This document shows, one piece after another, positions 29,456 through 57,346 of a DNA stretch of 64,000 nucleotides. The stretch lies in NCBI GenBank assembly GCA_963847625.1, contig CAWKAR010000039.1, positions 45,244 through 109,243 on the forward strand, read 5' to 3'. The DNA comes from a candidate division FCPU426 bacterium. Its GTDB lineage: Bacteria; Oederibacteriota; Muellerivitia; Muellerivitales; Muellerivitaceae. The notes under the pieces are model-generated. The model worked only from the letters and a program-made list of their open reading frames with translations. It made no database searches and had not been told where the DNA came from. Made by a program: the position numbers and the translations under genes. The stretch's first letter is position 1. Every line of letters starts with the position of its first letter.

Positions 29456-29551
29456 GAATTATCCTTACTTTCCAGGTTTTTATTACCGATGGATCTGGGA
29501 TAGGAAGTTGACTTTCCATGATCTCAACTTATTATTAAGGGGCTTTAACAC

Positions 29552-30610: not shown

Positions 30611-30613
30611 ACC

Positions 30614-31225: not shown

Positions 31226-31326
31226 CAATGGCCCGCGAATCGTTTGCGGCAAACAACCGTCAATGAATTAGACTTAAAATCCTTGCCTGATTATGGGCAA
31301 GAAACGCAAAAAAGAGGAGTCTTGAA

Positions 31327-33324: not shown

Positions 33325-33408
33325 AGGCCTCGGCGGTAATTGGAGGGTGATATAATCCCAATTAATCTAAGTCATTTCGCTTGGGCCATCCAATTCGAGG
33401 TTAATGAA

Positions 33409-34566
33409 TTGTCTTTCAAAAAAATCGCCATCCTGGGTTCAACCGGCTCCATCGGCCAATCCGCCCTCAAAGTTGTTCAAAAGCTCAAACCCGGATTCCA
33501 AGTAACTGGTTTGACCGCTAACCGCAACATCCTGGAACTTGCCAAACAAATCAAGGCCTTCCGGCCCAAATTAGCCGCGCTCATGGATGAAAATCTGGTT
33601 TCCCGGCTCAAGGGCCTCGTGAAGGGCCTCCCGACCCGCGTCTTGGGCGGGGAAGAGGGACTGCTGGCGGTGGCGGCGGAATCGGGAGCCGATATGGTGC
33701 TTTCCGCCATCGTAGGTGCCGCAGGCTTGAAATCAACCTTAACCGCCATCCAAAGGGGCAAAGACATCGCGCTGGCCAACAAGGAAACCATGGTGATGGC
33801 TGGGGAAGTCGTGACGAAGGCGGCCCGGAAATCGGGTTCCAAAATCCTTCCGGTAGACAGCGAACATTGCGCCATATTCCAATGCTTGGCTGGATGCGAC
33901 AAGCCGGAAACCGAAATCCACCGGATCCTCCTTACGGCATCCGGCGGGCCCTTTCGCCTCCTGCACCGGAAGCATTTCCACAAGATAAAGCTGAAAGAAG
34001 CCCTGAACCACCCCACCTGGCGCATGGGTCCCAAGATCACCATCGATTCGGCCACTATGATGAACAAGGGGTTGGAGGTCATCGAGGCCCATTACCTGTT
34101 TGGCGCTCCCTTCCGAAAAATTGAAATCGTAATCCATCCCGAGTCCATCGTACATTCCATGGTGGAGTTCATCGACGGATCGGTGCTAGCCCAGTTGGGT
34201 ACCACCGACATGCAGATTCCCATCCAATTCGCCATCACTTATCCTATCCGGCGGAAAACTCCCGTGGAAAGACTGGACTTTGCCAAGGCGGGCAAACTTC
34301 ACTTTGAGAAACCCGACCGTAAAAAATTTCCCTGCGTGGACCTGGCTTACGAGGCGGGAGAAAAAGGCGGCACCTTTCCCGCGGTTTTAAACGCGGCCAA
34401 CGAGGTGGCGGTGGATCGATTTTTAAAAGAGGAAATCGGTTTCAGCGATATCCCTAGAATCATCGATAAAACCCTGGCAAAATACCGTCCCCTGACAAAT
34501 GGGACCCTCGATGGTATATTGATGGCCGATCGCTGGGCCCGGGCACAAGCGGCCAAAATCCTGTAA
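33409..34566 (+). CDS. dxr: 1-deoxy-D-xylulose 5-phosphate reductoisomerase
   Basis: KKIAILGSTGSIGQSALKVV NADPH-binding start plus conserved Dxr core. The ORF opens at 33340 directly after the terminator; a TTG at 33409 with a GAGG RBS is the more plausible start. Confidence 0.85.
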   Translation: MSFKKIAILGSTGSIGQSALKVVQKLKPGFQVTGLTANRNILELAKQIKAFRPKLAALMDENLVSRLKGLVKGLPTRVLGGEEGLLAVAAESGADMVLSAIVGAAGLKSTLTAIQRGKDIALANKETMVMAGEVVTKAARKSGSKILPVDSEHCAIFQCLAGCDKPETEIHRILLTASGGPFRLLHRKHFHKIKLKEALNHPTWRMGPKITIDSATMMNKGLEVIEAHYLFGAPFRKIEIVIHPESIVHSMVEFIDGSVLAQLGTTDMQIPIQFAITYPIRRKTPVERLDFAKAGKLHFEKPDRKKFPCVDLAYEAGEKGGTFPAVLNAANEVAVDRFLKEEIGFSDIPRIIDKTLAKYRPLTNGTLDGILMADRWARAQAAKIL

Positions 34567-34575
34567 GGAAACCCC

Positions 34576-35931
34576 ATGAACTCAACTCTATGGCTTATCG
34601 AAGTTATCGTGGCTTTCGGCTTCATGATTTTCATCCATGAAGGCGGACATTTCCTGTTTTGTAGGCTGTTCAAGGTGGAAGTGGAGGAATTCGCGTTGGG
34701 GTTTGGAACGCGCCTAGCCAGTTGGAAATGGGGAAAAACACTCTATTCCATCCGGGCATTACCCCTGGGGGGATTCTGCAAACCCCAAGGAGGGGACTTG
34801 AGCGGTGAAAGCGCCGAGAAAATGTACGAGAATCCCCCCCAACCCGGGGATTTCCTGAGCGCCGCCTGGTGGAAAAGGATATTTATTTTCATGGCCGGTC
34901 CCGGTATGAATTTCATCTCGGCCTTCTGTCTTTACTTCCTGCTTTTCTGGATTATCGGGGACAAGGTTCCCATGGGAAAACCCTTCCTGGGTTATATTCC
35001 CCCTCATAGCGCGGCCTCGGTGGCGGGTTTGAAGGAAGGAGACCATCTTTTAAAAGTCGACGGTTCGTATTACAAGAATCTTTACCGCGCGGTGGGAGTC
35101 ATTTTCGATAGGTTAGACAGAAGAAAAGGTTCCGGCGTCATTCTGACCCTGGAGAGAAAGGGAAAAACCTTCAATTGCGTCCTAAAGGGGGCCATAAAAA
35201 ATCCTGACTTTGAATTGGGAATATACCAGGCTCTTCCTCCTGTGATCGGGATGGTGCCTTTCTCCTCCCCGGCACGGAAGGCTGGGTTATTGGAAGGAGA
35301 CTTGATCCTGAGCGTTGACGGCCAGAAAGTTTCCGAGTGGGGTGAGCTGACTTATATTATCCACCATTCCATGACAGATGAAATCCATCTCCTCGTCTCA
35401 CGGCAGGGAAAGTCTTATCCCGTTGTTTTAAAAAAAGTTTTCGACGGAATGGGGAAACACATCGGCATCTCCCCGCCGGATGCGACGGAATTTGACGCCC
35501 AAAAAATGGGTGTATTGGAAGCTTTCAGCGCGGCCGGAACAAAGATTGTCGGAACTACCCTTCTTTACGCGGACGCACTCTGGGAAATGGTGGTGGGGAA
35601 GATATCCTTGAAAGATAATATTGGCGGCCCCGTGACCATCATGCGGGTCATGTACCAAAGAGCGTCCCTGGGCTGGCAGGAATTTCTTAATATCATCGCT
35701 TTTATTTCCCTCATCCTTTGCATCATGAACCTTCTTCCGATCCCGGTGGTGGACGGCGGCCAAGTGGTCCTTTGCCTCGTGGAGGGGATCAAACGGAAAG
35801 CCGTTTCAGTCAAGGTGCAGATGGCCTACCAGCAAGTGGGTTTCATCCTGGTGATTGGGCTCATGGTCTTTGCTGTCATCATGGATTTCTGGAGCCTCTA
35901 CCTGGAAAAATTCCACAACCAATTCCATTAA
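34576..35931 (+). CDS. rseP: Site-2 protease RseP/RasP (zinc metalloprotease with PDZ domains)
   Basis: HEGGHF HExxH in TM1, two PDZ-like segments, NLLPIPVVDGGQVV (LDG motif). Confidence 0.88.
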   Translation: MNSTLWLIEVIVAFGFMIFIHEGGHFLFCRLFKVEVEEFALGFGTRLASWKWGKTLYSIRALPLGGFCKPQGGDLSGESAEKMYENPPQPGDFLSAAWWKRIFIFMAGPGMNFISAFCLYFLLFWIIGDKVPMGKPFLGYIPPHSAASVAGLKEGDHLLKVDGSYYKNLYRAVGVIFDRLDRRKGSGVILTLERKGKTFNCVLKGAIKNPDFELGIYQALPPVIGMVPFSSPARKAGLLEGDLILSVDGQKVSEWGELTYIIHHSMTDEIHLLVSRQGKSYPVVLKKVFDGMGKHIGISPPDATEFDAQKMGVLEAFSAAGTKIVGTTLLYADALWEMVVGKISLKDNIGGPVTIMRVMYQRASLGWQEFLNIIAFISLILCIMNLLPIPVVDGGQVVLCLVEGIKRKAVSVKVQMAYQQVGFILVIGLMVFAVIMDFWSLYLEKFHNQFH

Positions 35932-41942: not shown

Positions 41943-43058
41943 ATGGCTGAGCAATTCTACGAAATCAAGCGTCGCAAGACCCGAACTGTCATGGTTGGGA
42001 AGGTCCAGGTGGGAAGCGGGGCTCCCATCTCCATCCAATCCATGACCAACACCCATACCTACGATATCCAGGAAACGCTTGACCAGATCAAGCGCCTGGA
42101 AGACGCAGGGTGCGAGATCATTCGAGTAACGGTGGAGAATCAGAAATCCCTCAAGGCTCTTGGGAAGATTAAATCGAAAATGAGAGTGCCTTTGGTGGCG
42201 GACATTCATTTCGCCTACCAGCTCGCTTTGGGGGCCGTGGATGAGGGCGCGGATAAAATCCGCATCAACCCTGGAAATATCGGCGGGATGGATCGGCTGG
42301 CGCTAGTGGTCGAAAAATGCAAACAACATAACGTGGCCATGCGGGTGGGAGTGAATTCAGGTTCTTTGGAAAAGGATCTGCTAGAGAAATACGGCCATCC
42401 TACGCCCGAGGCTATCGTGGAATCTGCTCTCCGGCATATCCGCTTCATCGAGTCCCTGGGCTACCAAAGCCTGGTTATCTCCGTAAAAAGCTCCCACGTG
42501 CCTACCATGATTCGTTCCTACCGTCTCCTGGCGGAGAAGTGCGAATACCCCTTACACGTGGGAGTCACCGAGGCCGGCACCAAGACGCAAGGCATCACCA
42601 AGAGCGCTGCTGGAATCGGGGCGGTCTTGGCTGAGGGCATCGGGGACACCATCCGGGTTTCGCTCACCGCCGACCCGGTGGAGGAGATAAAAGTCGCAAC
42701 CCAGCTTTTGCGCGCAATGGGTTTGAGGAAGGAAGGGGTGGACATTGTGGCCTGCCCTACTTGCGGACGCTGTCACGTTGACCTGGAAGCGATGGTGGAT
42801 GCGGTGGAAAACGCTACTTTGAACATAAAGACCCCCCTGCGGGTGGCCGTTATGGGATGCGTAGTAAACGGTCTCGGAGAGGGGGCGGAAGCGGATATCG
42901 GCTTATGCTCCGAAAAGGGCCATGGGGTTATTTTCGAGAAGGGCAAGGTCACGACCCGCTTGAAGGAAGAAGAATTGGTGTCCCATTTGATCAACGAGGT
43001 CAAGAAAAGGGCCGAAGAAATGTCTAAAAAAGCTCAATTCCCAGCAGAAAGTACCTGA
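41943..43058 (+). CDS. ispG: 4-hydroxy-3-methylbut-2-enyl diphosphate synthase (flavodoxin)
   Basis: GcpE TIM-barrel (VPLVADIHF) plus C-terminal 4Fe-4S domain CPTCGRC...GCVVNG. Confidence 0.9.
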   Translation: MAEQFYEIKRRKTRTVMVGKVQVGSGAPISIQSMTNTHTYDIQETLDQIKRLEDAGCEIIRVTVENQKSLKALGKIKSKMRVPLVADIHFAYQLALGAVDEGADKIRINPGNIGGMDRLALVVEKCKQHNVAMRVGVNSGSLEKDLLEKYGHPTPEAIVESALRHIRFIESLGYQSLVISVKSSHVPTMIRSYRLLAEKCEYPLHVGVTEAGTKTQGITKSAAGIGAVLAEGIGDTIRVSLTADPVEEIKVATQLLRAMGLRKEGVDIVACPTCGRCHVDLEAMVDAVENATLNIKTPLRVAVMGCVVNGLGEGAEADIGLCSEKGHGVIFEKGKVTTRLKEEELVSHLINEVKKRAEEMSKKAQFPAEST

Positions 43059-43204
43059 AATTTTTTCGCCGTTTTGGCTGGATAACCTTATTTAATTCCT
43101 TGCTGAAATCACACAATTGAAGAAAATAGTTCTTCGAGAGGGGTACGGTATGCCGTACTCCTTAATTTTTACCCGCGGTTTATTTGGTGAATAAAAGGAT
43201 TTTT

Positions 43205-44932
43205 ATGCGAGTCTCCAAAGCCTTGATTCCCACCGTCAAGGAAACTCCCGGCGAGGCGGAAATTCCCTCCCATAAACTTATGCTTCGGGCTGGATTGATG
43301 CGTAAGGTGGCCTCAGGCATCTACGAGTACCTTCCCCTGGGCGTGCGTTCCATCTTGAAAGTGTCAAATATCATCCGGGAGGAAATGACCCGGGCTGGTG
43401 CCCAGGAAGTGCTTCTTCCCATCATGACACCTGCTGAACTTTGGGTGGAAACGGGCCGATGGCAGAAATACGGGAAGGAACTCATGCGCTTGAAGGACCG
43501 CCATGAGCGCGACTACGCTCTCGGACCCACGCACGAGGAGGTTATCACTGACCTTGTGCGAAGGGAACTCAAGAGTTACAAACAACTGCCCTTGAATCTT
43601 TTCCAGATCGCCACCAAATTCCGGGACGAGGTCCGTCCCCGGTTCGGGGTCATGCGCAGCCGAGAGTTTCTCATGAAGGATGGTTATTCCTTCGACGTGG
43701 ACAACGAGGCTTGCGACAAGACTTATTGGGCCATGGTGGAGGCTTACAAACGGGTTTTCAAGCGATGTGGCTTGTCTTTTTCCCCTGTGGAAGCGGACTC
43801 GGGCCTGATTGGGGGGAGCTTCACCCATGAATTCATGGTCCTAGCCGAGACCGGAGAAGCAGCCATCGCCATGTGTGAAGCTTGTGGGTATGCGGCTAAC
43901 CTAGAAAAAGCCGTTTCGGTTCCATTACCTCACACTGCTGAAGAATCTGGCCCGGCTTTCTCGAAGGTGGAAACACCCGGCAAGCACACCGTAGAAGATG
44001 TTGGCAAATTCCTGAAATTGCCGCCTCAACAATTCATCAAGACCCTCATATTCATAGCGGATGGGAAACCGGTGGCCGTCATGGCGCGAGGGGACCACGA
44101 GGTCAACGAGATCAAGGTCAAGAACTACCTCCAAGCCACCGAACTAGCCCTGGCCTCATCCGAGAAGGTCATGGAAGCAACCGAAGCCCCGGTGGGGTTT
44201 GCCGGGCCCGTGGGATTGAAAGGAATACGCGTGATTTCGGATCAAGCCCTGAAGGGAGGGCACCAATACGTGACAGGGGGGCTGGAAAAGGATATCCATC
44301 TGAAAAACGTTGAATTCGGAAGAGATTTTCCCGAGCCTGAGTGGGGCGATTTTCGAAATGTTGCCTCGGGGGAGGGATGTCCCCATTGCGGCAAGCCTGT
44401 CAAAGCGGGACGTGGCATCGAGGTGGGACAGACCTTCAAACTGGGGCTCAAGTACTCGACTTCCATGCATTGCGTTTACCTAGATGAGAAGGGCCAGGAA
44501 CGGGAGGCGGTCATGGGCTGCTATGGAATCGGCGTCACCCGCACGGTGGGCGCGGCTATCGAGCAGCATAATGACGCGGACGGCATCCGGTGGCCCATTT
44601 CTATCGCGCCCTATCAGGTGCACCTGCTTTGCCTGAATCCCGCCGAAACCGAGGTGACCCGGGTTGCCGACCAGTGTTACGTGGATTTAATGAAAGCCGG
44701 ATACGAAGTTCTTTATGATGACCGCGCCGACACCACAGCGGGGTTCAAATTCAAGGATGCGGATCTTTTGGGCATGCCGCTCGCGGTACGAGTGGGCGCC
44801 AAGGGGTTGAAGGAAGGGCTGGTCGAGGTAAAACGACGACGGGAAAAGGAAGTCTCCAAGGTCCCGATGGCAATGGTGTTGGACAAGGTCAAGGAATTAG
44901 CCAGCGAGGAATGGAAAATCTGCACCCCCTGA
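43205..44932 (+). CDS. proS: Prolyl-tRNA synthetase (bacterial type with editing domain)
   Basis: MRVSKALIPTVKE start; class II motifs FRDEVRPRFGVMRSREFLMKDGYSF; anticodon-binding C-terminus. Confidence 0.9.
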   Translation: MRVSKALIPTVKETPGEAEIPSHKLMLRAGLMRKVASGIYEYLPLGVRSILKVSNIIREEMTRAGAQEVLLPIMTPAELWVETGRWQKYGKELMRLKDRHERDYALGPTHEEVITDLVRRELKSYKQLPLNLFQIATKFRDEVRPRFGVMRSREFLMKDGYSFDVDNEACDKTYWAMVEAYKRVFKRCGLSFSPVEADSGLIGGSFTHEFMVLAETGEAAIAMCEACGYAANLEKAVSVPLPHTAEESGPAFSKVETPGKHTVEDVGKFLKLPPQQFIKTLIFIADGKPVAVMARGDHEVNEIKVKNYLQATELALASSEKVMEATEAPVGFAGPVGLKGIRVISDQALKGGHQYVTGGLEKDIHLKNVEFGRDFPEPEWGDFRNVASGEGCPHCGKPVKAGRGIEVGQTFKLGLKYSTSMHCVYLDEKGQEREAVMGCYGIGVTRTVGAAIEQHNDADGIRWPISIAPYQVHLLCLNPAETEVTRVADQCYVDLMKAGYEVLYDDRADTTAGFKFKDADLLGMPLAVRVGAKGLKEGLVEVKRRREKEVSKVPMAMVLDKVKELASEEWKICTP

Positions 44933-45026
44933 ACGGCGATCAGTGGCGATGAAACACCCACGATAAACAAAAGCTTGGTTGGGAAGCCCGACGCATTCAG
45001 CAAATCTTCTATTAAGGACCGCTTGC

Positions 45027-46181
45027 TTGAAAATCGCCCTGGTTACCGACACCTATTTTCCCCGAATCAACGGCGTTTCCGCGTCCACCCGGATTTTTGC
45101 GGAGGAATTCGATCGGCTCGGCCACGAAGTCCATATTTATGCCCCGGCTTTCCCGAACCATATCGACGAGGCGGGCCGCATCCAGGTCCACCGTTTTCCT
45201 TCCTGGTATCTTTTTTTCGATCCCGAGGACCGTTTAGGATATCCTTCCGGGGATAAGAAACTGATTCGTCGGTTCATCGACATGAAGTTCGATGTTGTGC
45301 ATACCCAAACCCCTTTCACCATAGGGGGTCCCGCGGTGAAATGGGCCCGGCAATCAGGTGCGAAATTGGTTCACACTTACCATACCCTTTTCGCGGCTTA
45401 CGTGGAGCATTACCTCTGGTTTTTCCCCAAGAGTTTCAGCGTTTGGTACGCCAAAACCGCCAGCCGCCGCTATTGCAATTCCTGTGACCTGGTGGTAACC
45501 CCGTCCTCGGAAATGCGGGAGGTGCTCCTGGGTTACGGCGTGACAAAGCCCATCGAGGTGGTACCCACCGGTATCCGGTTGGAAAAATTCAAAGGAAGCG
45601 ATCCAAAAAGATTCCGGGAACTTAAGGGTTATAAACCCGAGGACAAGGTCCTTTTATTCATGGGCCGGGTGGCGGAGGAAAAAAACATCGATTTTTTACT
45701 TCGAGTAATCCACCGATTGGTAGCCCGGATACCTTGTTTGCATTTCCTGATCGCGGGGGAAGGAGCGGCCAAGAAACGCCTCCAGAAAATGGCTTTCGAA
45801 TTGGGCTTGGGTGACCGCGTTTTATTTGCCGGTTACTTGGACCGGGAGGATTGGCGGGATTGTTACGCCGGGGCGGACCTTTTCATTTTAGCTTCGGTCA
45901 CCGAAACCCAGGGGCTGGTTGTTACCGAGGCCATGGCAGCCGGTGTACCTGTTGTGGCGGTGGGGGAGATGGGCGTCAAGGAAGTGATGGCTTCCGGCAA
46001 GGGGGGCATCCAAACCCAGTTGGACGAAGATGAATTTTCCGAGGCTGTCTACCGAATGATGACCGACCCGGCGCTCTACGCCCAAAAAAAATCGGAAACA
46101 CTTGTTGAAGCCGAGAAATGGTCTTCCACCACCATGGCCAAGAAAATGATCAAAGCGTATGAAAACATTCCCCGGAAATGA
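45027..46181 (+). CDS. Glycosyltransferase family 4 (GT-B, group 1)
   Basis: TTG start with AAGGA RBS. KIALVTDTYFPRINGVS N-terminus. C-terminal EX7E region ASVTETQGLVVTEAMAAGVPVVA. Confidence 0.8.
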   Translation: MKIALVTDTYFPRINGVSASTRIFAEEFDRLGHEVHIYAPAFPNHIDEAGRIQVHRFPSWYLFFDPEDRLGYPSGDKKLIRRFIDMKFDVVHTQTPFTIGGPAVKWARQSGAKLVHTYHTLFAAYVEHYLWFFPKSFSVWYAKTASRRYCNSCDLVVTPSSEMREVLLGYGVTKPIEVVPTGIRLEKFKGSDPKRFRELKGYKPEDKVLLFMGRVAEEKNIDFLLRVIHRLVARIPCLHFLIAGEGAAKKRLQKMAFELGLGDRVLFAGYLDREDWRDCYAGADLFILASVTETQGLVVTEAMAAGVPVVAVGEMGVKEVMASGKGGIQTQLDEDEFSEAVYRMMTDPALYAQKKSETLVEAEKWSSTTMAKKMIKAYENIPRK

Positions 46182-47025
46182 ATGGATCGCGCGGACAAGG
46201 AATGTCTTGCCCCTAACATGGTTTGTTGCGTTGGCCTTATGCTTTCTAACGGGTTTATCGGCCCGCGCGCAAGATCTCCAGAAACCCTGGGTTTTCCTGC
46301 CGGGCCCGCCCCAGTTTAACCCACTTCTCGCCGACCCGAGGGAACCCCAAACCTCCATCATCGCCCATACCAATCAAAGCCGTTTTGAGGGTGCCGTGGG
46401 GGCCCAACTGGAGATCCTCCGTTATAACGATCCCGGCGGAACTCATTGGGCCGCAGGACTCTTCGGATCGGGTTTTATTTTACTGGATGAGAATGGCGCC
46501 ACCTTTCCCGCCCGGGCCAACGACTGGGTCGCGGGTTTGGACCTCAGCGAGAGCACCGGAATCCTTTCCCACCGCTTGGAATTCTTGCACCAAAGCTCCC
46601 ATCTTGGGGATTCCTTAGAGGGTGTTCAAGAACCTATCATCTACAATGGCGAGAACTTCAATTATGTCTGCTCCCTCCAGCCTTGGGAAAATTTAAGATT
46701 TTATGCGGGAATTGGCGCTTGGGAAAATTTATTCCCGCCGGATAACGCTTTTTTTGCCCCTTTCGGCGTGGAAGTTTTTTCCCCCCCATTGGGTTTTATC
46801 GGAACTTATATGAGGGGTTACACGGCCTGCCATTTGGAATGGAAAGGCCAGGCAGGCGGCCAATGGGATGGAGCGTTCCAATGGGGAATCCAATGGAAGT
46901 GGAAAAAAAATGAACCCCGCGCGGTCCGTTTGGCTCTCGTTTATTACGACGGTAATTACCAATTCGGGCAATTTTACCTGAGACACGATTCACATTTAGG
47001 TATTGGAATTTACTTTGACCCATGA
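46159..47025 (+). CDS. Secreted hypothetical protein, paralog A (conserved WVFLPGPPQFNPLLADPRE and HQSSHLGDS motifs; ends GIYFDP)
   Basis: Signal peptide. Tandem paralog of the next gene with shared N- and C-terminal motifs and an HxSSHLGD block. Confidence 0.5.
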   Translation: MKTFPGNEWIARTRNVLPLTWFVALALCFLTGLSARAQDLQKPWVFLPGPPQFNPLLADPREPQTSIIAHTNQSRFEGAVGAQLEILRYNDPGGTHWAAGLFGSGFILLDENGATFPARANDWVAGLDLSESTGILSHRLEFLHQSSHLGDSLEGVQEPIIYNGENFNYVCSLQPWENLRFYAGIGAWENLFPPDNAFFAPFGVEVFSPPLGFIGTYMRGYTACHLEWKGQAGGQWDGAFQWGIQWKWKKNEPRAVRLALVYYDGNYQFGQFYLRHDSHLGIGIYFDP

Positions 47026-47032
47026 GAAAACG

Positions 47033-47902
47033 ATGAAAAGATTTTTCTATCCCCTATTTGCTTTATGCCTGACGGTCGTCTTCGGGGCGGTTCAAGCCCA
47101 GGAGAGCCCTTGGGTGTTCCTGCCGACTGTGCCGGTTTTTGAACCCCTTCTGGGTGATCCGAGGGAAGTCCAAAACGGAATCAATTTCAGGACGGGACGG
47201 TTCAATTTCGAGGGTTCAGTCGGTTCCACGCTTGAGTTTCTCCAGTGGCGGCCAACCGGATCGACACGATGGGGATGGGGCATCTTGGGTGAGGGTTTTG
47301 TCAGCCTGAATACCGCGAGTCAAAACGATTATCCCAACCGGGCGGTAACCTGCGATGGAAATTTGATTTATGACGAGTTTCCGGAGATAGCAAATGATTG
47401 GTACTTTGGAATGTATTTCAGCGAATCCTCCGGTTATTTCTCAAACAGGTTTGACTACACTCACGTCAGCTCTCACCTTGGCGACGAGCTTTTCAACTAT
47501 GTAAAAAGTTTCATCTACACCCGAGAAAGTTTCCGTTTCACTTCCTCGTACCAGCCCTCGGAGCGATTCCGCTTATATGCCGGCTTGGGCTACTATCCCC
47601 ATATGTCACCGGATGGCAAACGGTTGTTCGCTCACGCGGGAACGGAGTGTTATACGGCTTTTTTCCCCTTCATTTTAGCGACAACCGGAAGGGGATATTT
47701 CACCTATGATGTGAAAGCCAAGCAGGAAGCCGGTGGAGTTGTGAACCAGGAATTCCAATTGGGTTTTCAATGGAAATGGAACAGAAAAACCCAGGAAGTC
47801 CTTCACCTTGGCATTCTTTATTTCAATGGAAATTCAGAGTACGGCCAGTTTTACCTTCAAAATGACAATCATTGGAGCTTTTTTATTTATTTTGATCCAT
47901 GA
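47033..47902 (+). CDS. Secreted hypothetical protein, paralog B (WVFLPTVPVFEPLLGDPRE, THVSSHLGDE; ends FIYFDP)
   Basis: Signal peptide MKRFFYPLFALCLTVVFGAVQA. Same motif set as paralog A. Confidence 0.5.
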   Translation: MKRFFYPLFALCLTVVFGAVQAQESPWVFLPTVPVFEPLLGDPREVQNGINFRTGRFNFEGSVGSTLEFLQWRPTGSTRWGWGILGEGFVSLNTASQNDYPNRAVTCDGNLIYDEFPEIANDWYFGMYFSESSGYFSNRFDYTHVSSHLGDELFNYVKSFIYTRESFRFTSSYQPSERFRLYAGLGYYPHMSPDGKRLFAHAGTECYTAFFPFILATTGRGYFTYDVKAKQEAGGVVNQEFQLGFQWKWNRKTQEVLHLGILYFNGNSEYGQFYLQNDNHWSFFIYFDP

Positions 47903-48095: not shown

Positions 48096-48123
48096 TTGAC
48101 AAACACTCTATAGGTTGTATAGT
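48096..48123 (+). promoter_or_regulatory. Sigma70-like promoter upstream of polC
   Basis: TTGACA, 16-nt spacer, TATAGT, ~57 nt upstream of the polC start. Confidence 0.4.
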
Positions 48124-48179: not shown

Positions 48180-51100
48180 ATGACGCTCGAAGGTTCCCCG
48201 GCCGCGGAATCCGAACCCCCATCTACTCTCTTTTATGATTTTATCCAGCAAATTCCCCTCCAGTGTTTTGAAAAAGAAAGGTTCCTCCATTCGGAGCTTT
48301 TAGGGGTCCAGGTTTATCCCGAGCGCACCCTGGTTGTGATGCGGCTGAAAATGCCTGCTCCTGTCTCAGTTGAAACCTACGCGAACGTCACCCGTTGCCT
48401 GAAGGAAAGCCTGCCAGACGTAGGCCGGATCGTCTTGGATGTCCACTACGCCGCTTCCGTGATCGGGCCGGCCGACTACCTGGCGGCCCATGAAAAGGAT
48501 TTGATCTATTGCCTTTCCGAGGAAGCCGACATCTCCGAGAGCTGGTTTTCCTACTACCGCGTCGAGTTAAGGGACACGAATCTCTTGTTTCAGGTTCCCA
48601 ATGAAGCCGCCCGTCAGCAGTTGGAACGAAAAGAATGCGTGCGTGTGTTGAGGGAAATTCTCAAAAAGCGTTGTGGCGTGGATTTGAAAGTGGATCTCCA
48701 GGTCAACCCGTCCATTATTCCAGAAAAACCCCACTCGGTCGAACCACCGCCTGTTACCGCTTTTCCCAAGGGCCCGATTGAGAACATCCTATTTGGCCGG
48801 AAGATTTCAGAAACGGCCCAATCCCTGACTGTAACCGACGAGCAAAGAGGTTTTGTGGGGCAGGGGGAGGTCATCCTTTACGACGTATTCCAGACCAGAA
48901 GCGGCCGCCAATTGGCGAAAATGACCCTCACCGATTACACCGATTCCCTGGATGTGCTTTTCTTTTTTGAGAACGACGGAAAATTCAAGGGTGGGATTAA
49001 AGAAGGCGATTGGCTCAGGGTGCGGGGGGACTTGCGTTTCGACAGCCGGGATCCCAACGAAATGGTCCTGAACGCTAGGGATATCACGAGAATCAATCCA
49101 CCTGCGACCCGGATGGACCAAGCGCCTGAAAAACGAGTGGAGCTCCATTGCCACACCCAAATGAGCCGGATGGACGGACTATCCAAGATCGACCGGTTGA
49201 TTGAGACCGCCGCCCGCTGGGGGCATCCCGCTATCGCCCTCACTGATCATGGCGTGGTTCAGGCCTATCCCGAGGCACGGGCTGTGGCGAAAAAAAACGG
49301 CATCAAGCTGATTTTGGGAATGGAAGGTTACCTTGTTGACGAGTTCAAGAGGGATAAGAACCTGCCCATCTACCACATCATTCTTCTTGTGAAAAACCGG
49401 ATTGGCCTCAAAAACCTCTACCAACTCGTGACAGAAAGCCATTTAAAGTACTTTTACAAAAGGCCCTTGATTCCCCGGGCCCTCCTCGCGAAACATCGGG
49501 AAGGACTGTTCCTGGGCTCGGCTTGCGAACAAGGGGAGGTATGGCAACATTTGCTGCGCAAGGACAAACCCCTGGAGGAAGTAGCCAGCTTTTACGACTA
49601 TATCGAGATACAGCCATGCGCCAATAACGAGTTCATGATCCAAGAAGGCATGGTGAAGAGCATGGATGAACTCCAGAATTTAACCCGCACCCTTTATGAG
49701 ACCGGCAAAAAACTAGGCAAGCTGGTTCTGGCTACTGGGGATTCCCATTTTCTCAATCCCCAAGATGATGTGTACCGAAAAATCCTTCACGCCGGAATGG
49801 GTTATGGGGTGGAAAGGCAGGCACCCCTTTTCTTTAAAACCACCCAGGAACTCAAGGGGGATTTCGATTATTTTGGTGAGGAGGTGGCCCATGAGTTGGT
49901 GGTAACCAACCCTCGCAAGGTGGCGGAAATGATAGAGGAAGTGGAACCCCTCCCGACAAAGACTCTTTCCCCCCACTTGGAGGGAGCGGATGAGCTTTTA
50001 AGGAAAACAGCCACCCACGAAGTCCATCGGCTTTATGGTGACCCTCTTCCGGATTTCATTGATAAGCGTCTTCAAAAGGAACTCAACGCCATCATCAACA
50101 ACAAGTTCTCCACTCTTTACGTCATCGCCATGAAGCTTGTGAAAAAATCAATCGCGGACGGCTATGTGGTCGGAAGCCGTGGCTCGGTAGGGAGTTCCCT
50201 TGTGGCTTTTCTCAGCGGAATCACGGAGGTGAACCCCTTACCGCCGCATTGGCGTTGTGAGGAAGGGCACTACCACGAATTTCCGGAAAAACCTGCCTCC
50301 ACGGCTGGCGTGGATCTGCCGGAAAAAAACTGCCCAACTTGCGCTAAACCTTTGCTGAGGGACGGCTTTTCCATTGCCTTCGAAGTGTTCATGGGTTTCG
50401 AGGGAGATAAAATGCCGGACATCGACCTGAATTTCTCCGGCGAATATCAACATGTGGCCCATAAATATGTGGAAGAGCTTTTCGGTAAAGAGTACTGTTT
50501 CCGAGCGGGAACCATTTCGGCCGTGAAGGACCGGATCGCCTTTGGCTTCGTGAAAAAATACGTGGAACAATCGGGCCGCAAGACCCGTAACGCCGAGTTG
50601 AACCGCCTAGTCAAGGGATGCTCGGGAGTTTCCAAAACAACAGGCCAGCATCCGGGTGGCATCGTCATCTTGCCCAAGAACATGGAAATCACCGACGTCT
50701 GCCCCGTCCAGTATCCCGCGGACAACAAAGACGGGGACGTCATCACCACCCATTTCGATTACGACAGCATGCATGACTGCCTCGTCAAACTGGATATCCT
50801 AGGCCATGACAACCCCACCAGCCTCAGGCGGCTCGAGAACATGACAGGCGTTTCACCTGCCAAAATTCCCTTGAACGACGCTAAGACCATGAGCCTTTTT
50901 TCCGGCATCCAAGCGCTTGGCTTGAGGGAAAAAATCGATAAGGACCTGGGCACCCTGGGCGTACCCGAATTCGGGACATTTTTCGCCATGGACATGCTTC
51001 GGGATACCCGGCCCACGAAATTCGAAGAATTAGTAAGACTTTCTGGCCTAGCTCACGGTACAAACGTTTGGCTGGGTAACGCCCAGAATTTGATCAAGAA

Positions 51101-51842
51101 AGGCACTGCGGGCCTATCAACGGTCATCTCTACACGCGACGATATGCTGAACGACCTGAGAGCCCGGAAAATGGATGAGGCTTTGGCTTTCAAAATCATG
51201 GAGTCGGTGAGAAGAGGGAAAGGATTGACAGCCGATTTTGAAAGTGCCATGGCGGAAGCCAATACGCCCGCTTGGTACGTGGAAAGTTGTAGGAAAATCA
51301 AGTATATCTTCCCGAAGGCCCACGCCGTGGCTTATTGCATCATGAGTTTTAAGATTGCTTGGTTCAAGGTTCACCATCCCCTGGCCTTTTATGCGGACTA
51401 TTTCACCAACAAGAGCTTCGGCTTCGACGCTACCGTCGCCTGTGATGGGATCAGCCGGGTCAAGGACCGAATCAAGCATATCCAGTCCATCGAGAAACCT
51501 ACGGCAAAAGAATTGGACGAGTCCTCCGTGTTGGAAGTGGCCGAGGAAACTTACGCCCGGGGTTTTCGTTTCCTCCCGGTGGATCTCTACCAGTCCACTA
51601 GCCGAACCTTTCAAATCGAGGAGCAATCGGGGGAAAAAATGCTCCGCCCACCGTTGATTTGCTTGCCCGGCTTGGGAGAGACCGCCGCAGAAGCCATTGT
51701 AGAGGAACGCAAAAAGGGTGCCTTTAATTCGGTGGAAGACCTCCAACAGCAATGTAGCGTGAATAAAAATGTGGTGGAAATCCTCAAAACCCATGGCTGC
51801 CTGAAGAATATTCCAGATACCAAACAAGTTTTGCTTTTTTAG
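48180..51842 (+). CDS. polC: PolC-type DNA polymerase III alpha subunit lacking the 3'-5' exonuclease insert
   Basis: PolC N-terminal domain, OB domain, PHP (HCHTQMSRMDG...ALTDHGVVQAYPE...LILGMEGYLVDEF), then directly YHIILLVKNRIGLKNLYQLV... (the second half of PHP) with no DEDD exonuclease block. Palm (PDIDLNF), fingers, and (HhH)2 C-terminus. 1220 aa versus ~1430 for canonical PolC. Confidence 0.8.
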   Translation: MTLEGSPAAESEPPSTLFYDFIQQIPLQCFEKERFLHSELLGVQVYPERTLVVMRLKMPAPVSVETYANVTRCLKESLPDVGRIVLDVHYAASVIGPADYLAAHEKDLIYCLSEEADISESWFSYYRVELRDTNLLFQVPNEAARQQLERKECVRVLREILKKRCGVDLKVDLQVNPSIIPEKPHSVEPPPVTAFPKGPIENILFGRKISETAQSLTVTDEQRGFVGQGEVILYDVFQTRSGRQLAKMTLTDYTDSLDVLFFFENDGKFKGGIKEGDWLRVRGDLRFDSRDPNEMVLNARDITRINPPATRMDQAPEKRVELHCHTQMSRMDGLSKIDRLIETAARWGHPAIALTDHGVVQAYPEARAVAKKNGIKLILGMEGYLVDEFKRDKNLPIYHIILLVKNRIGLKNLYQLVTESHLKYFYKRPLIPRALLAKHREGLFLGSACEQGEVWQHLLRKDKPLEEVASFYDYIEIQPCANNEFMIQEGMVKSMDELQNLTRTLYETGKKLGKLVLATGDSHFLNPQDDVYRKILHAGMGYGVERQAPLFFKTTQELKGDFDYFGEEVAHELVVTNPRKVAEMIEEVEPLPTKTLSPHLEGADELLRKTATHEVHRLYGDPLPDFIDKRLQKELNAIINNKFSTLYVIAMKLVKKSIADGYVVGSRGSVGSSLVAFLSGITEVNPLPPHWRCEEGHYHEFPEKPASTAGVDLPEKNCPTCAKPLLRDGFSIAFEVFMGFEGDKMPDIDLNFSGEYQHVAHKYVEELFGKEYCFRAGTISAVKDRIAFGFVKKYVEQSGRKTRNAELNRLVKGCSGVSKTTGQHPGGIVILPKNMEITDVCPVQYPADNKDGDVITTHFDYDSMHDCLVKLDILGHDNPTSLRRLENMTGVSPAKIPLNDAKTMSLFSGIQALGLREKIDKDLGTLGVPEFGTFFAMDMLRDTRPTKFEELVRLSGLAHGTNVWLGNAQNLIKKGTAGLSTVISTRDDMLNDLRARKMDEALAFKIMESVRRGKGLTADFESAMAEANTPAWYVESCRKIKYIFPKAHAVAYCIMSFKIAWFKVHHPLAFYADYFTNKSFGFDATVACDGISRVKDRIKHIQSIEKPTAKELDESSVLEVAEETYARGFRFLPVDLYQSTSRTFQIEEQSGEKMLRPPLICLPGLGETAAEAIVEERKKGAFNSVEDLQQQCSVNKNVVEILKTHGCLKNIPDTKQVLLF

Positions 51843-52230
51843 AAACGGAAAGCTTGAAATATTTCCTTGGCCTGTTTGGTTTTCTATTCTTATTTGGGTT
51901 ATAAGAACTTTATAACCGGTTGCTCAGACCCCGCCTACGGCAACTTGGCTGAATTACTTCAGGGAAGTAAAATTGTTCTCCGGATTTGATCTGATAGGGG
52001 TGAAGAAGCAAAATGAAGAGTGATTCCTTGATAAAAACGGCTTCTTTTGAATCGCGATTTTTATAGGGATATTGATTTTGCCATGTTCATTGGAAGTTTA
52101 CTATCTTTTTGGACCCTACCATCAAATTTGGAAGATTCCCAATTCTCATTGAGTTAATCTCAAGTCCGTTGAATTTTACAAAACCTATGGAGTCTTAAAG
52201 GAAAAAACCAGGATAGCGGGGGATGGAGCC

Positions 52231-52875
52231 TTGCTTTTTGATTTGCTTCCCGCCGTTTCGGATCAAACCCTAGTGATTACTTGTCACCCGTTCGACGCAG
52301 CCCATAATCCCCATTTAAAGTTCGAGAACGTCCATTGGACGGCCCTATTAATGAATATCAATTGTGAACCATTTCACTGCCAGCGTTTTCCGGAGGGACA
52401 GTGGATAAATCTTTCGGAGGAGTTGCCGTCTTTTCTGGAAGGCGGAGTTTTGGAAATTATCCCGGTCTTGCCCGGAAATAAAGAAACGTTGGGAGGATTT
52501 TTTTACGCAAACCAGGCTAGCCAGAAGATAACCAATTTGATCATGCAACATCGTTGGAACACTTTCCAGGAAGATATTCTTCAAGACCTTGAAAAAATTT
52601 ATCCTTTCTTTCGAAACGATCCATTCCTTGAAACCTGTTTTTGGGACAAAGTTTTTTTCCATTCCCAAAAGGATCATTTAGATCAGCAATCTTTTCATGA
52701 TATCGAAAGGGCTTTAAAATTCGGATATCCCGCGGCAAACCTTTTTTACAGTCAGGGAATCTATTTTTATCGGTTTGGATTTATCAAGAAAGCCATCTCA
52801 TCCCTTGAGGCGGCATCACGCCTTCCGGTGAATAGGACGCCTGCGCAACAATTTTTTGGATGTATTGAAAAGTAA
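52231..52875 (+). CDS. Hypothetical protein (C-terminal TPR-like helix pair) in an AT-rich insertion
   Basis: 214-aa ORF at ~40% GC, flanked by ~380 bp of AT-rich non-coding sequence on each side, located between polC and rimP. Confidence 0.4.
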   Translation: MLFDLLPAVSDQTLVITCHPFDAAHNPHLKFENVHWTALLMNINCEPFHCQRFPEGQWINLSEELPSFLEGGVLEIIPVLPGNKETLGGFFYANQASQKITNLIMQHRWNTFQEDILQDLEKIYPFFRNDPFLETCFWDKVFFHSQKDHLDQQSFHDIERALKFGYPAANLFYSQGIYFYRFGFIKKAISSLEAASRLPVNRTPAQQFFGCIEK

Positions 52876-53223
52876 ATGCCATTAAAACTTTTTATTTTCA
52901 GCGGTTGTTGCATAAATCTGTTTTATTGTAGCTTCGATAGAGTTTTGAGTATTAAAAGTATCGTGTTTTGGCTTGATTTTAGGGCTTTCCCCTTGCCAGA
53001 ACCCTTTGTTTTTGCTAAAACATAAGAGTTAATTAAGGCTGTCCCAAAAAGTGGGTCCCTTTCATGGCCCGCTTTTTTTTTCATCAAATAGGTGTTTGTT
53101 AGGAATGTGACAGGGTATTTCCGGAAGGGGGTTAACTCCATCCGGAAATACGTTATTAGGTTAGCTTAAAGTTCATTCAGAACGGCCGCAAGGCCGTTTG
53201 TCGTTTATAGGGATGGAAATGGC

Positions 53224-53697
53224 ATGAGTTTTTTGGACGAATTTGGGCGTGCTCAACTCAAAGCCATTGCGGAGGAGGTTGTTAAGGAAAACTTTTTAGT
53301 ACTTTTCGATTTTCGGGTCCGTCCCCAGGGATCAAAACTGGTTCTAACCTTGGTGGTTGACAAGAAAATTGGTGAAATTTCGGTCGGGGATTGCGAGATC
53401 GTCAGCAGGGAAATGGAAAAAAGGCTGGACGAAATGGACATCATCCAGACTCCTTACCTTCTAGAAGTTTCTTCCCCTGGAATGGACCGTCCCTTGTTGA
53501 ATTTGAGTGATTGCGAACGTTTCAAGGGCCGCTTGGCCCAATTTATTCTCAAGGAGCCCTGGGAGGGTTTGTTGACCTTCCAAGGCAGGCTGAATGGGGT
53601 TCGGGAGGGGAAAGTAGACCTTTTAGTAGGCAAAGAAAGGATCCTTTGTTTACCGTTCGATAGGGTTAAAACTGCCCATTTGGTTGTTGAAATATAA
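53224..53697 (+). CDS. rimP: Ribosome maturation factor RimP
   Basis: 157 aa. LVLFDFRVRPQGSKLVLTLVVDKKIGEISVGDCEIVSREM. Conserved position upstream of nusA. Confidence 0.85.
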   Translation: MSFLDEFGRAQLKAIAEEVVKENFLVLFDFRVRPQGSKLVLTLVVDKKIGEISVGDCEIVSREMEKRLDEMDIIQTPYLLEVSSPGMDRPLLNLSDCERFKGRLAQFILKEPWEGLLTFQGRLNGVREGKVDLLVGKERILCLPFDRVKTAHLVVEI

Positions 53698-53725
53698 GAC
53701 TGAATGATTTAGAGGGGTTGGAGCC

Positions 53726-55045
53726 ATGAGCAACGAATTGGCCTTGGTGATGAGCCAAATCGAGCACACCAAGCGCATTGACAAAAAAAAACTAGTCGAA
53801 GCGATACAGGCTGCCTTGTCTTCCGCAGCAAAAAAGATATTTGGCATCGGCCAGGAGGTTGAAGTCGAATTCGACGAGACTAATTATGAATTCATCGCCT
53901 ATTACCTCAAGGAAGTTGTCGAAAAAGTTGAGGAACCCGGCATCCAGATCACCCTTGAGGATGCGCGCAAATATAAAACCGACGCTCAATTGAATGAGGT
54001 CGTCAAGATCCGTATCCCATCCGATCAGTTCGGCCGGATCGCGGCCCAAACCGCCAAGCAGGTCATCGTTCAGCGCGTCCAAGACGCTGAGCGTCAGAGC
54101 GTCTACGACCAGTTTAAGGATAAGGAGGGTGAGCTCATCACGGGGAGCGTACTGCGTTACGAAGGGCGTAACGTCATTATTTCCTTTGGAGACGCGGAAG
54201 CCCTGATTCCAGCCAAGGAACAGGTTCCGCGCGAGCGCTATTCCACGGGTGAGCGAATGAAATTCCTCGTGCTGGAGGTTCGCAAGACGCTGAAGGGCCC
54301 TTCCATCATCGTCAGCCGGGCCCATCCCAATCTGGTGCGAAAATTATTCGAGTTGGAAGTGCCGGAAATTTACGAAGGAGCGGTTAAGATTGAAAGCGTG
54401 GCCCGTGAGGCCGGCGCCCGTACCAAGATTTCGGTCCGGGTAGTGAATGACGATCGCATTGATGCAGTCGGGGCTTGCGTTGGCGTCAAGGGCATTCGCG
54501 TTCAAAACATCGTTGATGAGATCCGAGGGGAGAAGGTGGATATCGTTCGTTGGGACGCGGAACCACACGCCTATCTTTCCAACGCCTTATCTCCAGCGAA
54601 AATCGCCCGCATCGTTTTTCATCCAGAGATACCCTCGGCGGAGGTCATCGTTCCAAATGACCAATTGTCCTTGGCCATCGGCAAAAAGGGCCAAAACGCC
54701 CGCCTAGCGGCTCGTCTTACCGGCATCAAAATCGACATTAAAAACGAGGAACAATACGCCCAGGAGGAAAGGGCGCGCATGGACGCTCATTTCCAGGAAG
54801 TCTCCCAGGAAACGGCCGCTGCTATCTCCGGGGCCAAGGTGGACGCCCCTTCGGCCGAAGCTGCGGCGGCATTGACCATAGATGAAAAAAAAGATGCGCC
54901 GCCCGATGAAATTGATGAGGGATCGGTTAAGGCCGAAGACCCCCCCCTGATTCCATTGCTCACGCGTGATATGGACGGCATGCCATCGATCCCGCCCTCG
55001 CCGGATGTACCCGCGGACACCAGCGTCAAAACTGATCAGGAGTGA
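53726..55045 (+). CDS. nusA: Transcription termination/antitermination factor NusA
   Basis: N-terminal domain, S1, and two KH domains (GACVGVKGIRVQNIVDEIRGEKVDIV; LSLAIGKKGQNARLAARLTG); acidic tail. Confidence 0.92.
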   Translation: MSNELALVMSQIEHTKRIDKKKLVEAIQAALSSAAKKIFGIGQEVEVEFDETNYEFIAYYLKEVVEKVEEPGIQITLEDARKYKTDAQLNEVVKIRIPSDQFGRIAAQTAKQVIVQRVQDAERQSVYDQFKDKEGELITGSVLRYEGRNVIISFGDAEALIPAKEQVPRERYSTGERMKFLVLEVRKTLKGPSIIVSRAHPNLVRKLFELEVPEIYEGAVKIESVAREAGARTKISVRVVNDDRIDAVGACVGVKGIRVQNIVDEIRGEKVDIVRWDAEPHAYLSNALSPAKIARIVFHPEIPSAEVIVPNDQLSLAIGKKGQNARLAARLTGIKIDIKNEEQYAQEERARMDAHFQEVSQETAAAISGAKVDAPSAEAAAALTIDEKKDAPPDEIDEGSVKAEDPPLIPLLTRDMDGMPSIPPSPDVPADTSVKTDQE

Positions 55046-55057
55046 ATATAAACCCAT

Positions 55058-57346
55058 ATGGGAAAAAGACTTTTTGAATTTGCCAAAGAATTGGGCCTTT
55101 CCAGCCGAGAAGTTTTGGAACGCTGCAAGAAACTGGGTTTTTCCATACCCAGCCAATTGACGGTGGTGGATGAGAAAATCCAGTCCGATATTCGACGCGA
55201 CTTGGGCATGGCTGATTTAAGCACCGCCACCAGCCATTCCCCAGCAACCACCCCGGCGGCCGTAAAGCCAGCTCACGGAAAAACGCGGACGTTGACCGCG
55301 CGCCCGGCGAATGTGGAGACTTCCTCCAAGACCCAATCAAAAACACCATCCACACTCACATCGCCAACTGCCACCTATCCCTCCTTGAAAACCGGACAGG
55401 GTAAAGCAGGACTTCGTAAATCCTCCTCGGCATCGAGAAAAAGTTCAGGACCAAAACCCCTGCCAAAAGGGCATGGACTCGCGGCCGGACGGCCCAAAAC
55501 TATTACCGCGTCCATTGCTAAAGAGGAAATTCCAGAGGAAAAGGCCAAATCCGAAGGCCAGGCTGAAAACGTTGAAACAGTGGAACCCAAGGTTCTCACT
55601 AAAATCAAGATTACTGAAGGAATAACCGTTTCAGAACTGGCCCAAAAATTGAACGTCAAAGCCGGGGTACTCATCAAGGAACTCATGGATCTCAAGATCC
55701 TGGCAACGATCAACCAACGTTTGGATATTACGGTGGCTGAAACCTTGTCTTCCGCGCATGATGCGGTAGTGGAAGTGGTTCCCCTTTACGGCGCGGAAAT
55801 GTTCCGCGATGAACCTGATGACCCTAAGGATCTCATGCCTCGTTCCCCCGTTGTGACGATCATGGGACACGTCGATCATGGGAAGACTCTTCTGCTGGAT
55901 TCCATCCGCAAGACCAAAGTGGCAGAGGGAGAAGCCGGAGGCATCACACAGCATATCGGCGCTTACCAGGTGAAACATGAAAAGGGCACTATCACTTTCC
56001 TGGATACGCCAGGTCACGAAGCTTTCACCCTGATGAGGGCCCGTGGAGCCAAGGCCACAGATATCGTGGTGCTGGTGGTGGCCGCAGACGACGGTGTCAT
56101 GCCCCAAACCCTCGAGGCTATCGATCATGCCAGGGAAGCGAAAGTGCCCATTTTGGTGGCGGTCAATAAAATCGACAAGCCTGAAGCCAACCCTGATCGG
56201 GTAAAAAACCAACTTGCGGAACGTGGACTCGTACCCGAGGAATGGGGAGGAACAAACATTTTCGTGGAAGTCTCCGCTAAGAAACGCCTGAACCTCGATA
56301 AACTCCTAGACATGATTCTCCTGCAAGCCGAAATTCTTGAACTCAAAGCCAATCCCCATCGTTCAGGAAAAGGCGTCGTCCTGGAGGCCCGATTGGAAAA
56401 GGATAGCGGCCCCGTGGCTACTCTCCTCGTTGAAAAGGGAACTCTTAAGATCGGGGATAACCTTTTGGCCGGAAGCACCTACGGCCGTGTAAAAGCCATG
56501 CAGGATGATTTGGGAAAATCCATTAAAAGCGCTGGGCCCACTATGCCGGTGGAAGTTTTGGGCCTTTCCGATGTGCCCCAGGCCGGGGATATGTTCTATG
56601 TTATGACCGACCCTAAGGTCGCCAGGGAAATTTCCACCCGACGCGCTGAGGCCTTAAAGGACAATCGTCTCGTGGGAGCCATGAAACATATCACCCTTGA
56701 CAACCTTTTCGAGCAGATAAAGGAAGGCCAGATTAAAGAACTCAAAGTCATTGTGAAAGCCGATGTCCAAGGGTCTGTGGAAGCCCTGACTTCTTCCTTG
56801 GAAAAACTGTCTACCGAAAAAGTATCCCTCCGCGTGATCCACAGCGGAACCGGCAACATCGTCAACTCGGATATATTACTGGCTTCCGCTTCCAACGCCA
56901 TCGTGGTCGGCTTCAACGTCCAAGCGGATCCAACCTCCAAAAGCACCGCTGAAAAAGAGGACGTGGATGTTCGTATCTATAGGATCATCTATGACGCTGT
57001 GGAAGATGTCCGCAAGGCCATGGAGGGGCTCTTGGAACCGACGCTCCGCCAAGTCTCCATCGGGAAGGCCGAAGTCAGGCAGCTTTTCAAGACTTCCAAA
57101 GGTGTCGTAGCCGGTTGCATGGTTATTTCCGGAAAGATCAGCAATAAAGCCAAGATCAAGATCCTCCGCGGTGAGGAGATGGTCCATGAAGGGTCCGTAT
57201 CCTCGCTCAAGCGTTTTAAAGACGATGTTAAGGAAGTTGGCACGGGTTTTGAATGCGGAATCGTTCTGGAGACTTTTGAGGATTTCCAAGTTGGGGATCA
57301 AGTGGATGCCTATATCCTGGAATCGGTCGCTCAAAAACTCAACTGA
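55058..57346 (+). CDS. infB: Translation initiation factor IF-2
   Basis: [30 protein letters not shown]-domain motifs plus IF-2 C-terminal domains; 762 aa. Confidence 0.95.

Follow-up and report, generated by a model that had tools for sequence, protein, structure and literature searches.

The polC gene and the missing exonuclease module

We analyzed a 64,000-nucleotide stretch of DNA (hereafter the window) from a candidate division FCPU426 bacterium (GenBank assembly GCA_963847625.1, contig CAWKAR010000039.1). The gene under study, polC, occupies positions 48180–51842 on the forward strand and appears in the open reading frame (ORF) listing of the window as one uninterrupted frame with an ATG start, encoding 1220 amino acids (aa). 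We confirmed that its product is a genuine PolC-type replicative DNA polymerase in which the modules other than the exonuclease are present. We also confirmed that the DnaQ-type exonuclease of canonical PolC, about 205 aa long, is replaced by a hairpin linker of about 10 residues, and that the exonuclease motifs Exo I, Exo II and Exo III are absent. An earlier note on this DNA, made from the sequence alone, had described a PolC with the exonuclease module precisely absent. Pfam, NCBIfam, alignments to the structures 9qpc and 3f2b and a MAFFT alignment all bear this out, and the junction peptides and lengths that it quoted (1220 against ~1430 aa) are correct. The absence is a feature of the structure and not a statistical pattern, so coincidence is no issue. 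Feature coordinates are collected in Table 1.

The protein scores well above the cut-offs of two NCBIfam equivalog models of PolC: 1361 bits for NF001688 (cut-off 873) and 1232 bits for TIGR01405 (cut-off 1043). Each match is split into two stretches with about 220 profile positions skipped between them, and the better stretch pairs residues 393–1220 with profile positions 610–1444. The full-length PolC of structure 9qpc also aligns in two parts (residues 174–388 with chain positions 213–431, residues 390–1220 with 635–1471), skipping about 203 residues. Structure 3f2b, which we take to be an engineered deltaN-deltaExo construct of G. kaustophilus PolC, aligns colinearly with residues 216–1220 (E=0), and the ‘gsgs’ linker in its chain coincides with the natural junction of the FCPU426 protein. 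According to its structure description, 3f2b was crystallized with DNA and dGTP. A PolC without the exonuclease (exo-less) is thus able to fold and to bind primer-template.

When the protein is aligned by MAFFT with five exonuclease-containing (exo-containing) PolCs, the motifs FDxETTG (Exo I), VAHNAxFD (Exo II) and HHRAxDDA (Exo III) all fall inside its gap, and its junction reads GMEGYLVDE-FKRDKNLP-IYHIILL. No Exo I, II or III motif, the finding that by the earlier note would have refuted its reading, lies inside the ORF. A Pfam scan of the 1220-aa ORF returned no RNase_T or other exonuclease family, PF00929 included. A profile hidden Markov model (HMM) built from five PolC exonuclease domains recovers the domain in four control PolC loci and has no match in this ORF or in any six-frame ORF of the 64-kb window. 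In an AlphaFold2 model of residues 310–600 (predicted local distance difference test, pLDDT, 89; predicted template modeling score, pTM, 0.89) the linker forms a tight hairpin turn joining two strands, and the PHP barrel is predicted to close over it. Linker length is fixed and its sequence conserved over the FCPU426 clade (YLV[DE]EF[KR][KR][ED][KR]G.IYHIIL).

The earlier note also considered the N-terminal, OB, PHP, palm, fingers and helix-hairpin-helix (HhH) regions intact. This stands for all of them except the N-terminal part, which is seen only in part: the NI and NII matches are weak and lie under the Pfam gathering scores, yet at the positions expected for PolC. The OB fold precedes the PHP domain (aa 321 onward, Pfam match aa 321–471), a PolC-type domain order that is distinct from DnaE. 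The DNA_pol3_alpha match covers aa 606–796 plus a second stretch. Among 151 diverse PolC representatives, the columns of D747 and D749 hold aspartate in 150–151 and the column of D872 in 149. We assigned these three residues as the catalytic triad by homology to what we take to be its E. coli alpha counterpart, D401, D403 and D555. D877 was considered as the third catalytic aspartate and dropped, as column conservation and the E. coli KFDFLG motif both point to D872. At the C terminus, or a few residues from it, nearly all homologs carry Q-x-x-[LF]-F; the clamp motif of PolC is described as near the consensus (Timinskas et al., 2014, NAR 42:1393, PMC3919608). Because the triad, fingers, HhH module, OB fold and C-terminal clamp motif are kept, the protein should be capable of processive DNA polymerization.

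Table 1. Features of polC and its surroundings, in window positions
Feature	Positions	Strand	Evidence
polC, PolC-type DNA polymerase III alpha subunit without exonuclease insertion	48180..51842	+	Pfam, NCBIfam and structure matches
NI (aa 18–80) and NII (aa 107–174) subdomains	48231..48701	+	Weak Pfam matches: PF14480 E=0.026, PF11490 E=9.7e-5
OB fold (aa 236–303)	48885..49088	+	PF01336 E=1e-8, 35.4 bits (cut-off 27)
PHP N-terminal half (aa 321–387), ligands H323, H325, D332, H357, E382	49140..49340	+	Pfam, ligand alignment
Junction linker EFKRDKNLPI (aa 388–397), at the site of the ~205-aa DnaQ-type exonuclease in canonical PolC	49341..49370	+	Structure alignments, MAFFT
PHP C-terminal half (aa 398–600), ligands H399, C449, D521, H523	49371..49979	+	Ligand alignment, PHP model
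Pol3 palm/thumb core (aa 606–878), catalytic D747, D749, D872	49995..50813	+	PF07733 E=3e-56
Zinc-finger block C693, H697 ... C718, C721	50256..50342	+	C-x3-H replaces first C-x2-C
Fingers domain (aa 879–1014)	50814..51221	+	PF17657 E=1.7e-18
Tandem helix-hairpin-helix DNA-binding module (aa 1128–1215)	51561..51824	+	PF14579 (HHH_6) E=2e-13
Predicted beta-clamp-binding motif QVLLF (aa 1216–1220), C-terminal	51825..51839	+	Motif match
Candidate sigma-70-like promoter TTGACA-16-TATAGT, 11/12 matches, 57 nt upstream of polC start	48096..48123	+	Consensus match only
ispG and proS, conserved upstream of polC, Firmicutes-like order	41943..44932	+	Synteny in L004, L005, L009, L010
rimP, nusA, infB, conserved downstream of polC	53224..57346	+	Synteny in all 11 FCPU426 loci

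Distribution in FCPU426 and probable loss of the exonuclease

The closest genomic loci come from metagenome-assembled genomes (MAGs) labelled candidate division FCPU426, with 62–91% identity over the whole protein. In the NCBI taxonomy FCPU426 is a candidate phylum placed in Bacteria incertae sedis; this lineage of the rare biosphere is represented by few genomes (PMC10434106). Assemblies from NCBI, JGI, ENA and Logan yielded about 40 relatives at 58–91% identity (~1217–1248 aa), and PF00929 is absent from all of them. The gene sits in a housekeeping locus with the order ispG-proS-GT4-DUF1207-DUF1207-polC-(orf214)-rimP-nusA-infB-rbfA-nrnA-truB-ribF-rpsO-pnp, the core of which is kept in 11 of 11 FCPU426 loci.

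An assembly or binning artefact, or a decaying pseudogene, could be suspected in a sequence whose source is a metagenome assembly, the more so as polC is split by a frameshift in a related long-read assembly. This explanation is effectively refuted by the unbroken frame of 1220 codons, by the same architecture in about 40 independent assemblies, by a linker of identical length across the clade and by catalytic and ligand residues that are invariant in it. The split gene itself lies at 9983–13659 of locus L004 (91% identity, on a 1.6-Mb long-read contig) as two overlapping ORFs, 9983–10981 and 10882–13659. The split is probably an assembly frameshift error, and it accounts for the truncated 909-aa protein P0030.

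PolCs without the Exo insertion have been described before. They make up 6% of PolCs, were reported only from Clostridia and Negativicutes apart from a single extra copy in Thermotogae, and are still classed as PolC variants (PMC3919608). The inserted DEDDh exonuclease has been described as a ‘hallmark’ of PolC. Our protein search found named examples in Moorella sp. (P0048), Pelosinus (P0098), Peptococcaceae (P0049) and Syntrophothermus. The clostridial and Negativicutes proteins are 45–52% identical to the FCPU426 protein and share with it the order N-terminal domain (NTD)-OB-PHP-Pol3-HhH, a loop of 7–34 aa in place of Exo at the same junction point, the PHP ligand set HHDHEHCDH, the aspartate triad and the C-terminal clamp motif. 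In contrast to these Firmicutes proteins, the FCPU426 protein comes from a diderm-looking host (autotransporter, DUF1207) outside Clostridia and Negativicutes. FCPU426 proteins also make up a separate clade (100% bootstrap support) that includes a deep sister lineage, have a linker of fixed length and conserved sequence, and mostly carry C-x3-H rather than C-x2-C in the zinc finger. Our literature search turned up no mention of an FCPU426 PolC. In the other respects compared, the protein belongs to the published exo-less variant, and neither the enzyme nor the mechanism is of a new kind; the novelty lies in a host phylum outside Firmicutes and in the phylum-wide occurrence.

The resemblance to canonical PolC (B. 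subtilis, S. aureus, 3f2b, 9qpc) extends over the whole polymerase, with E=0, colinearity outside the insertion and passing scores in the equivalog models. It also includes the neighborhood proS-polC-rimP-nusA-infB, which we take to be the gene order of B. subtilis. The differences are the ~205-aa DEDDh exonuclease, which the FCPU426 protein lacks, and one PHP ligand discussed below.

We built an unrooted neighbor-joining (NJ) bootstrap tree from 1085 shared columns, with the exonuclease columns removed. Three groupings have 100% bootstrap support: the main FCPU426 clade, a distant exo-less clade containing P0088 (labelled FCPU426, 45% identity), and both clades together against all Firmicutes-type PolCs. 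The possibility that P0088 is a second, paralogous PolC was rejected: its clade neighbors the main clade, and it occupies the same proS-GT4-polC...nusA-infB-rbfA locus, which makes it an ortholog. A single loss is therefore enough to account for FCPU426 sensu lato. The exo-containing Firmicutes-type PolCs were monophyletic in 0 of 200 bootstraps, and parsimony gave 3–7 state changes, with at least 3 in every bootstrap tree. The exonuclease therefore appears to have been lost repeatedly, in several independent events, among Firmicutes-type PolCs.

The unrooted tree is also compatible with an FCPU426 PolC that never had the exonuclease, since FCPU426 sensu lato forms one side of a 100% split. 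The lineage would then have branched off before DnaQ was captured, from a primordial PolC with PHP as the original proofreader, and the ancestral PolC architecture would survive in a diderm phylum whose deep gene order is shared with Firmicutes. Rooting disfavors this scenario. The rooted NJ analysis used the PHP domain and the start of the palm (367 columns) from PolCs with an intact PHP site, with DnaE1 PHP fragments (≤390 aa) as outgroup; an unrestricted set was dropped, being dominated by one long-branch PolC with a degenerate PHP domain. FCPU426 was never basal, and parsimony inferred an insertion at the root of PolC in 88 of the 100 bootstrap replicates (11 ambiguous, 1 without it). Secondary loss of the exonuclease is thus weakly favored, and we regard a primordially exo-less FCPU426 PolC as quite improbable.

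Ten other PolCs (P0130, P0138, P0141, P0147, P0149, P0188, P0193, P0206, P0237 and P0223) carry an insert of 66–290 aa at the exonuclease site. These inserts have no exonuclease HMM or Pfam RNase_T match and no DEDD motifs (e.g. ‘VSIHIGTTGD’). They appear to be degenerate remnants of the exonuclease, which would make these PolCs intermediates between the exo-containing and the exo-less form. A separate observation concerns a MAG labelled Chloroflexota (locus L013, JBLNDB010000092.1, 9587–13954), whose PolC (48% identity) is exo-containing and lies in the gene order ispG-proS-polC-rimP-nusA-infB. The MAG may be wrongly labelled or binned; otherwise PolC is present in an unexpected lineage.

The PHP metal site and its proposed role in proofreading

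The earlier note had suggested that proofreading would come from a separate subunit or from the PHP domain, and that the PHP metal-binding residues be checked. All nine ligands are intact (H323, H325, D332, H357, E382, H399, C449, D521 and H523, or HHDHEHCDH) and align one-to-one with those of Taq Pol III alpha and M. tuberculosis DnaE1, a positive result that supports the suggestion. The site agrees with the published ‘active’ PHP signature, HHDHEH[C/H]DH (PMC12926913). The full set of nine is found in each of the 38 full-length proteins of the FCPU426 clade, even at 58% identity. In contrast, both solved Bacilli-type PolCs (3f2b and 9qpc) have N instead of D at ligand 8 and are ‘inactive’ by the same published criterion.

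The modelled PHP domain has template modeling (TM) scores of 0.87 to 3f2b and 0.92 to 9qpc (with ~200 gap columns), and of 0.78 to Taq and 0.75 to the M. tuberculosis DnaE1 PHP domain. DnaE1 polymerases with a proofreading PHP domain (T. thermophilus and T. aquaticus Pol III alpha, M. tuberculosis DnaE1) share the uninterrupted PHP domain and the nine-ligand site, and we propose them as functional analogues. They belong to the other branch of the C family: the FCPU426 protein has an N-terminal OB fold, NI/NII and a C-terminal HhH module and clamp motif, not the DnaE OB-CTD, and PHP identity is only ~25%.

We compared PHP sites across 150 PolC cluster representatives (50% identity), drawn from 2215 PolC-like clusters found at E ≤ 1e-30 in an exhaustive HMMER search. 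The signature is kept in 27 of 30 exo-less clusters and in 62 of 103 exo-containing clusters (Fisher p = 0.002). Two of the three exo-less clusters that lack the full signature are fragments. The ten PolCs with unrecognizable inserts all have it (10/10), and pooling them with the exo-less clusters gives 37/40 (p = 1e-4). This association of exonuclease loss with PHP-site retention is no more than suggestive, as Fisher tests ignore phylogeny. Genetic data point the same way. In C. thermocellum PolC, the substitution C669Y at the PHP cysteine ligand alone gives a ~30-fold mutator phenotype (bioRxiv 10.1101/2021.07.30.454558). C669 corresponds to C449 of the FCPU426 protein, so by analogy the mutant would lend independent genetic support to PHP-based proofreading, and it is the sole, indirect support for exonuclease activity of the PHP domain.

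We propose that an ancestor of the lineage deleted the DnaQ-type 3′–5′ exonuclease at the PHP insertion point, leaving a hairpin of about 10 residues. Proofreading in the 3′–5′ direction would be carried out by the PHP domain itself through its nine-ligand trinuclear metal site, much as in the Thermus and Mycobacterium DnaE1 PHP domains. The polymerase would be the main replicase, alongside a DnaE-type partner presumably encoded elsewhere in the genome. We judge PHP-based proofreading the most likely mechanism because the nine-ligand site is intact and because the PHP site is kept much more frequently in exo-less than in exo-containing PolCs. A housekeeping exo-less PolC with PHP-based proofreading is also the best combined explanation of the observed architecture, residue conservation, synteny, clade-wide fixation and fold (probability about 0.65).

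Several points weigh against this explanation. The Fisher comparison is uncorrected for phylogeny. Most clostridial-type PolCs with an exonuclease conserve the PHP site as well; therefore conservation alone does not prove that PHP took over. The C669Y mutator could stem from structural destabilization rather than lost catalysis. We know of no biochemical demonstration of exonuclease activity for the PHP domain of any PolC. Two further points, the reach of the search for dnaQ and dnaE1 and the suggestion that DnaE1 is the main replicase, belong to the two rival accounts that follow.

In the first rival account, proofreading acts in trans: a separate DnaQ or epsilon-like exonuclease would dock on PolC, much as epsilon binds the E. 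coli alpha PHP domain, and the PHP site would be kept for structural or other reasons. DnaE1-only bacteria whose PHP is inactive typically rely on a separate DnaQ, and standalone DnaQ homologs are common, with a mean of more than 3 per proteome (PMC12926913). Searches of all six-frame ORFs of the window with the exonuclease HMM, and with PolC by phmmer, found no dnaQ and no dnaE. The same searches of 18 loci found only the positive-control exonuclease domains, and an extension of ~7 kb downstream contains no replication genes. These searches covered ~71 kb of this genome and, in 11 related FCPU426 genomes, 10 kb on each side of polC; a standalone DnaQ, or a DnaE1 that does most of the replication, could lie elsewhere. 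Many PolC organisms lack an epsilon subunit (bioRxiv 10.1101/2021.07.30.454558), and stricter PHP-site retention in exo-less than in exo-containing PolCs would be unexpected if an external DnaQ did the work. We consider proofreading in trans a distinctly less probable account than proofreading by PHP.

In the second, PolC is an accessory polymerase with less need of proofreading, and a DnaE1 encoded elsewhere, with an active PHP or with epsilon, replicates the chromosome. All exo-less PolCs reported are from PolC+DnaE1 genomes, where DnaE1 was speculated to be the principal polymerase; some Clostridia have DnaE1 only, and the conserved PHP site of PolC was also noted in that survey (PMC3919608). 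A DnaE-type subunit occurs in every bacterial species of a 2026 survey (PMC12926913), so FCPU426 probably has one. On the other side, the protein is retained across the clade at 58–91% identity and in the sister lineage at 45%, its triad, clamp motif and PHP site are invariant, and the conserved proS-polC-rimP-nusA neighborhood argues for a core function. An accessory role therefore seems unlikely to us, more so than proofreading in trans.

Exo-less PolCs raise two questions: how fidelity is kept after loss of the dedicated proofreader, and whether PolC or DnaE1 is the main replicase in PolC+DnaE1 systems (PMC3919608). FCPU426 widens the host range beyond Firmicutes to an entire candidate phylum with a fixed exo-less state, a stabilized linker and an invariant PHP site. 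Comparative support for PHP proofreading in PolC comes from the contrast between exo-less PolCs, which rarely lose the PHP site, and exo-containing clusters, ~40% of which have lost it. The FCPU426 protein is also a naturally minimal PolC that resembles the engineered deltaExo crystallization construct, and could be used for direct tests of PHP exonuclease activity.

Zinc finger and neighboring genes

The second cysteine of the canonical first C-x2-C is replaced in the zinc finger, which reads C693-x3-H697 (RCEEGH) ... C718-x2-C721. Most FCPU426-clade members share this change, and all other sampled PolCs keep C-x2-C ... C-x2-C. The first half of the finger varies within the clade: CxxC is retained in a few members, and a few others lack both Cys and His. 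The CPxC half is mostly kept. The resulting CHCC site could still bind zinc.

Directly upstream of polC are tandem DUF1207 paralogs (46159–47902), preceded by a GT4 glycosyltransferase gene (44979–46181). This GT4-DUF1207x2 block between proS and polC is conserved over FCPU426 loci, and GT4 is found also in the distant P0088 locus. The stretch between polC and rimP (51843–53223) is low in GC (0.425, compared with ~0.51) and holds a 214-aa ORF (52231–52875) with no Pfam match. The ORF has no tblastn match in any related locus, L004 included (91% PolC identity), and the polC-rimP spacer ranges from ~0.2 to 2.5 kb across genomes. The stretch is probably a strain-specific insertion.

Gene order is Firmicutes-like at 25567–33258, 33340–35931 and 41943–63642, in the ordered blocks lepA-lepB-hemW-hrcA-grpE-dnaK, dxr-rseP and ispG-proS...polC-rimP-nusA-infB-rbfA-nrnA-truB-ribF-rpsO-pnp. 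Outer-membrane (diderm) markers occur in the same window. Together these features hint that FCPU426 and Firmicutes may have deep ancestry or gene order in common, a parallel to the diderm Negativicutes. At 15–4754 lies a gene whose product, at least 1579 aa long, combines an autotransporter beta-domain (PF03797, E=4e-51) with PATR repeats; the gene may run off the window start. These domains indicate an outer membrane and type V secretion in the lineage.

Upstream of lepA, a 10-kb block (15052–25507) consists of six consecutive same-strand ORFs (257, 1033, 760, 799, 302 and 305 aa), none with a Pfam match at E ≤ 1e-4. Finally, a 1381-aa ORF at 10546–14691 may be an unusual fusion: its first ~480 aa resemble TRAM joined to a U5-methyltransferase (RlmD/TrmA-like), followed by ~900 aa without assignment.

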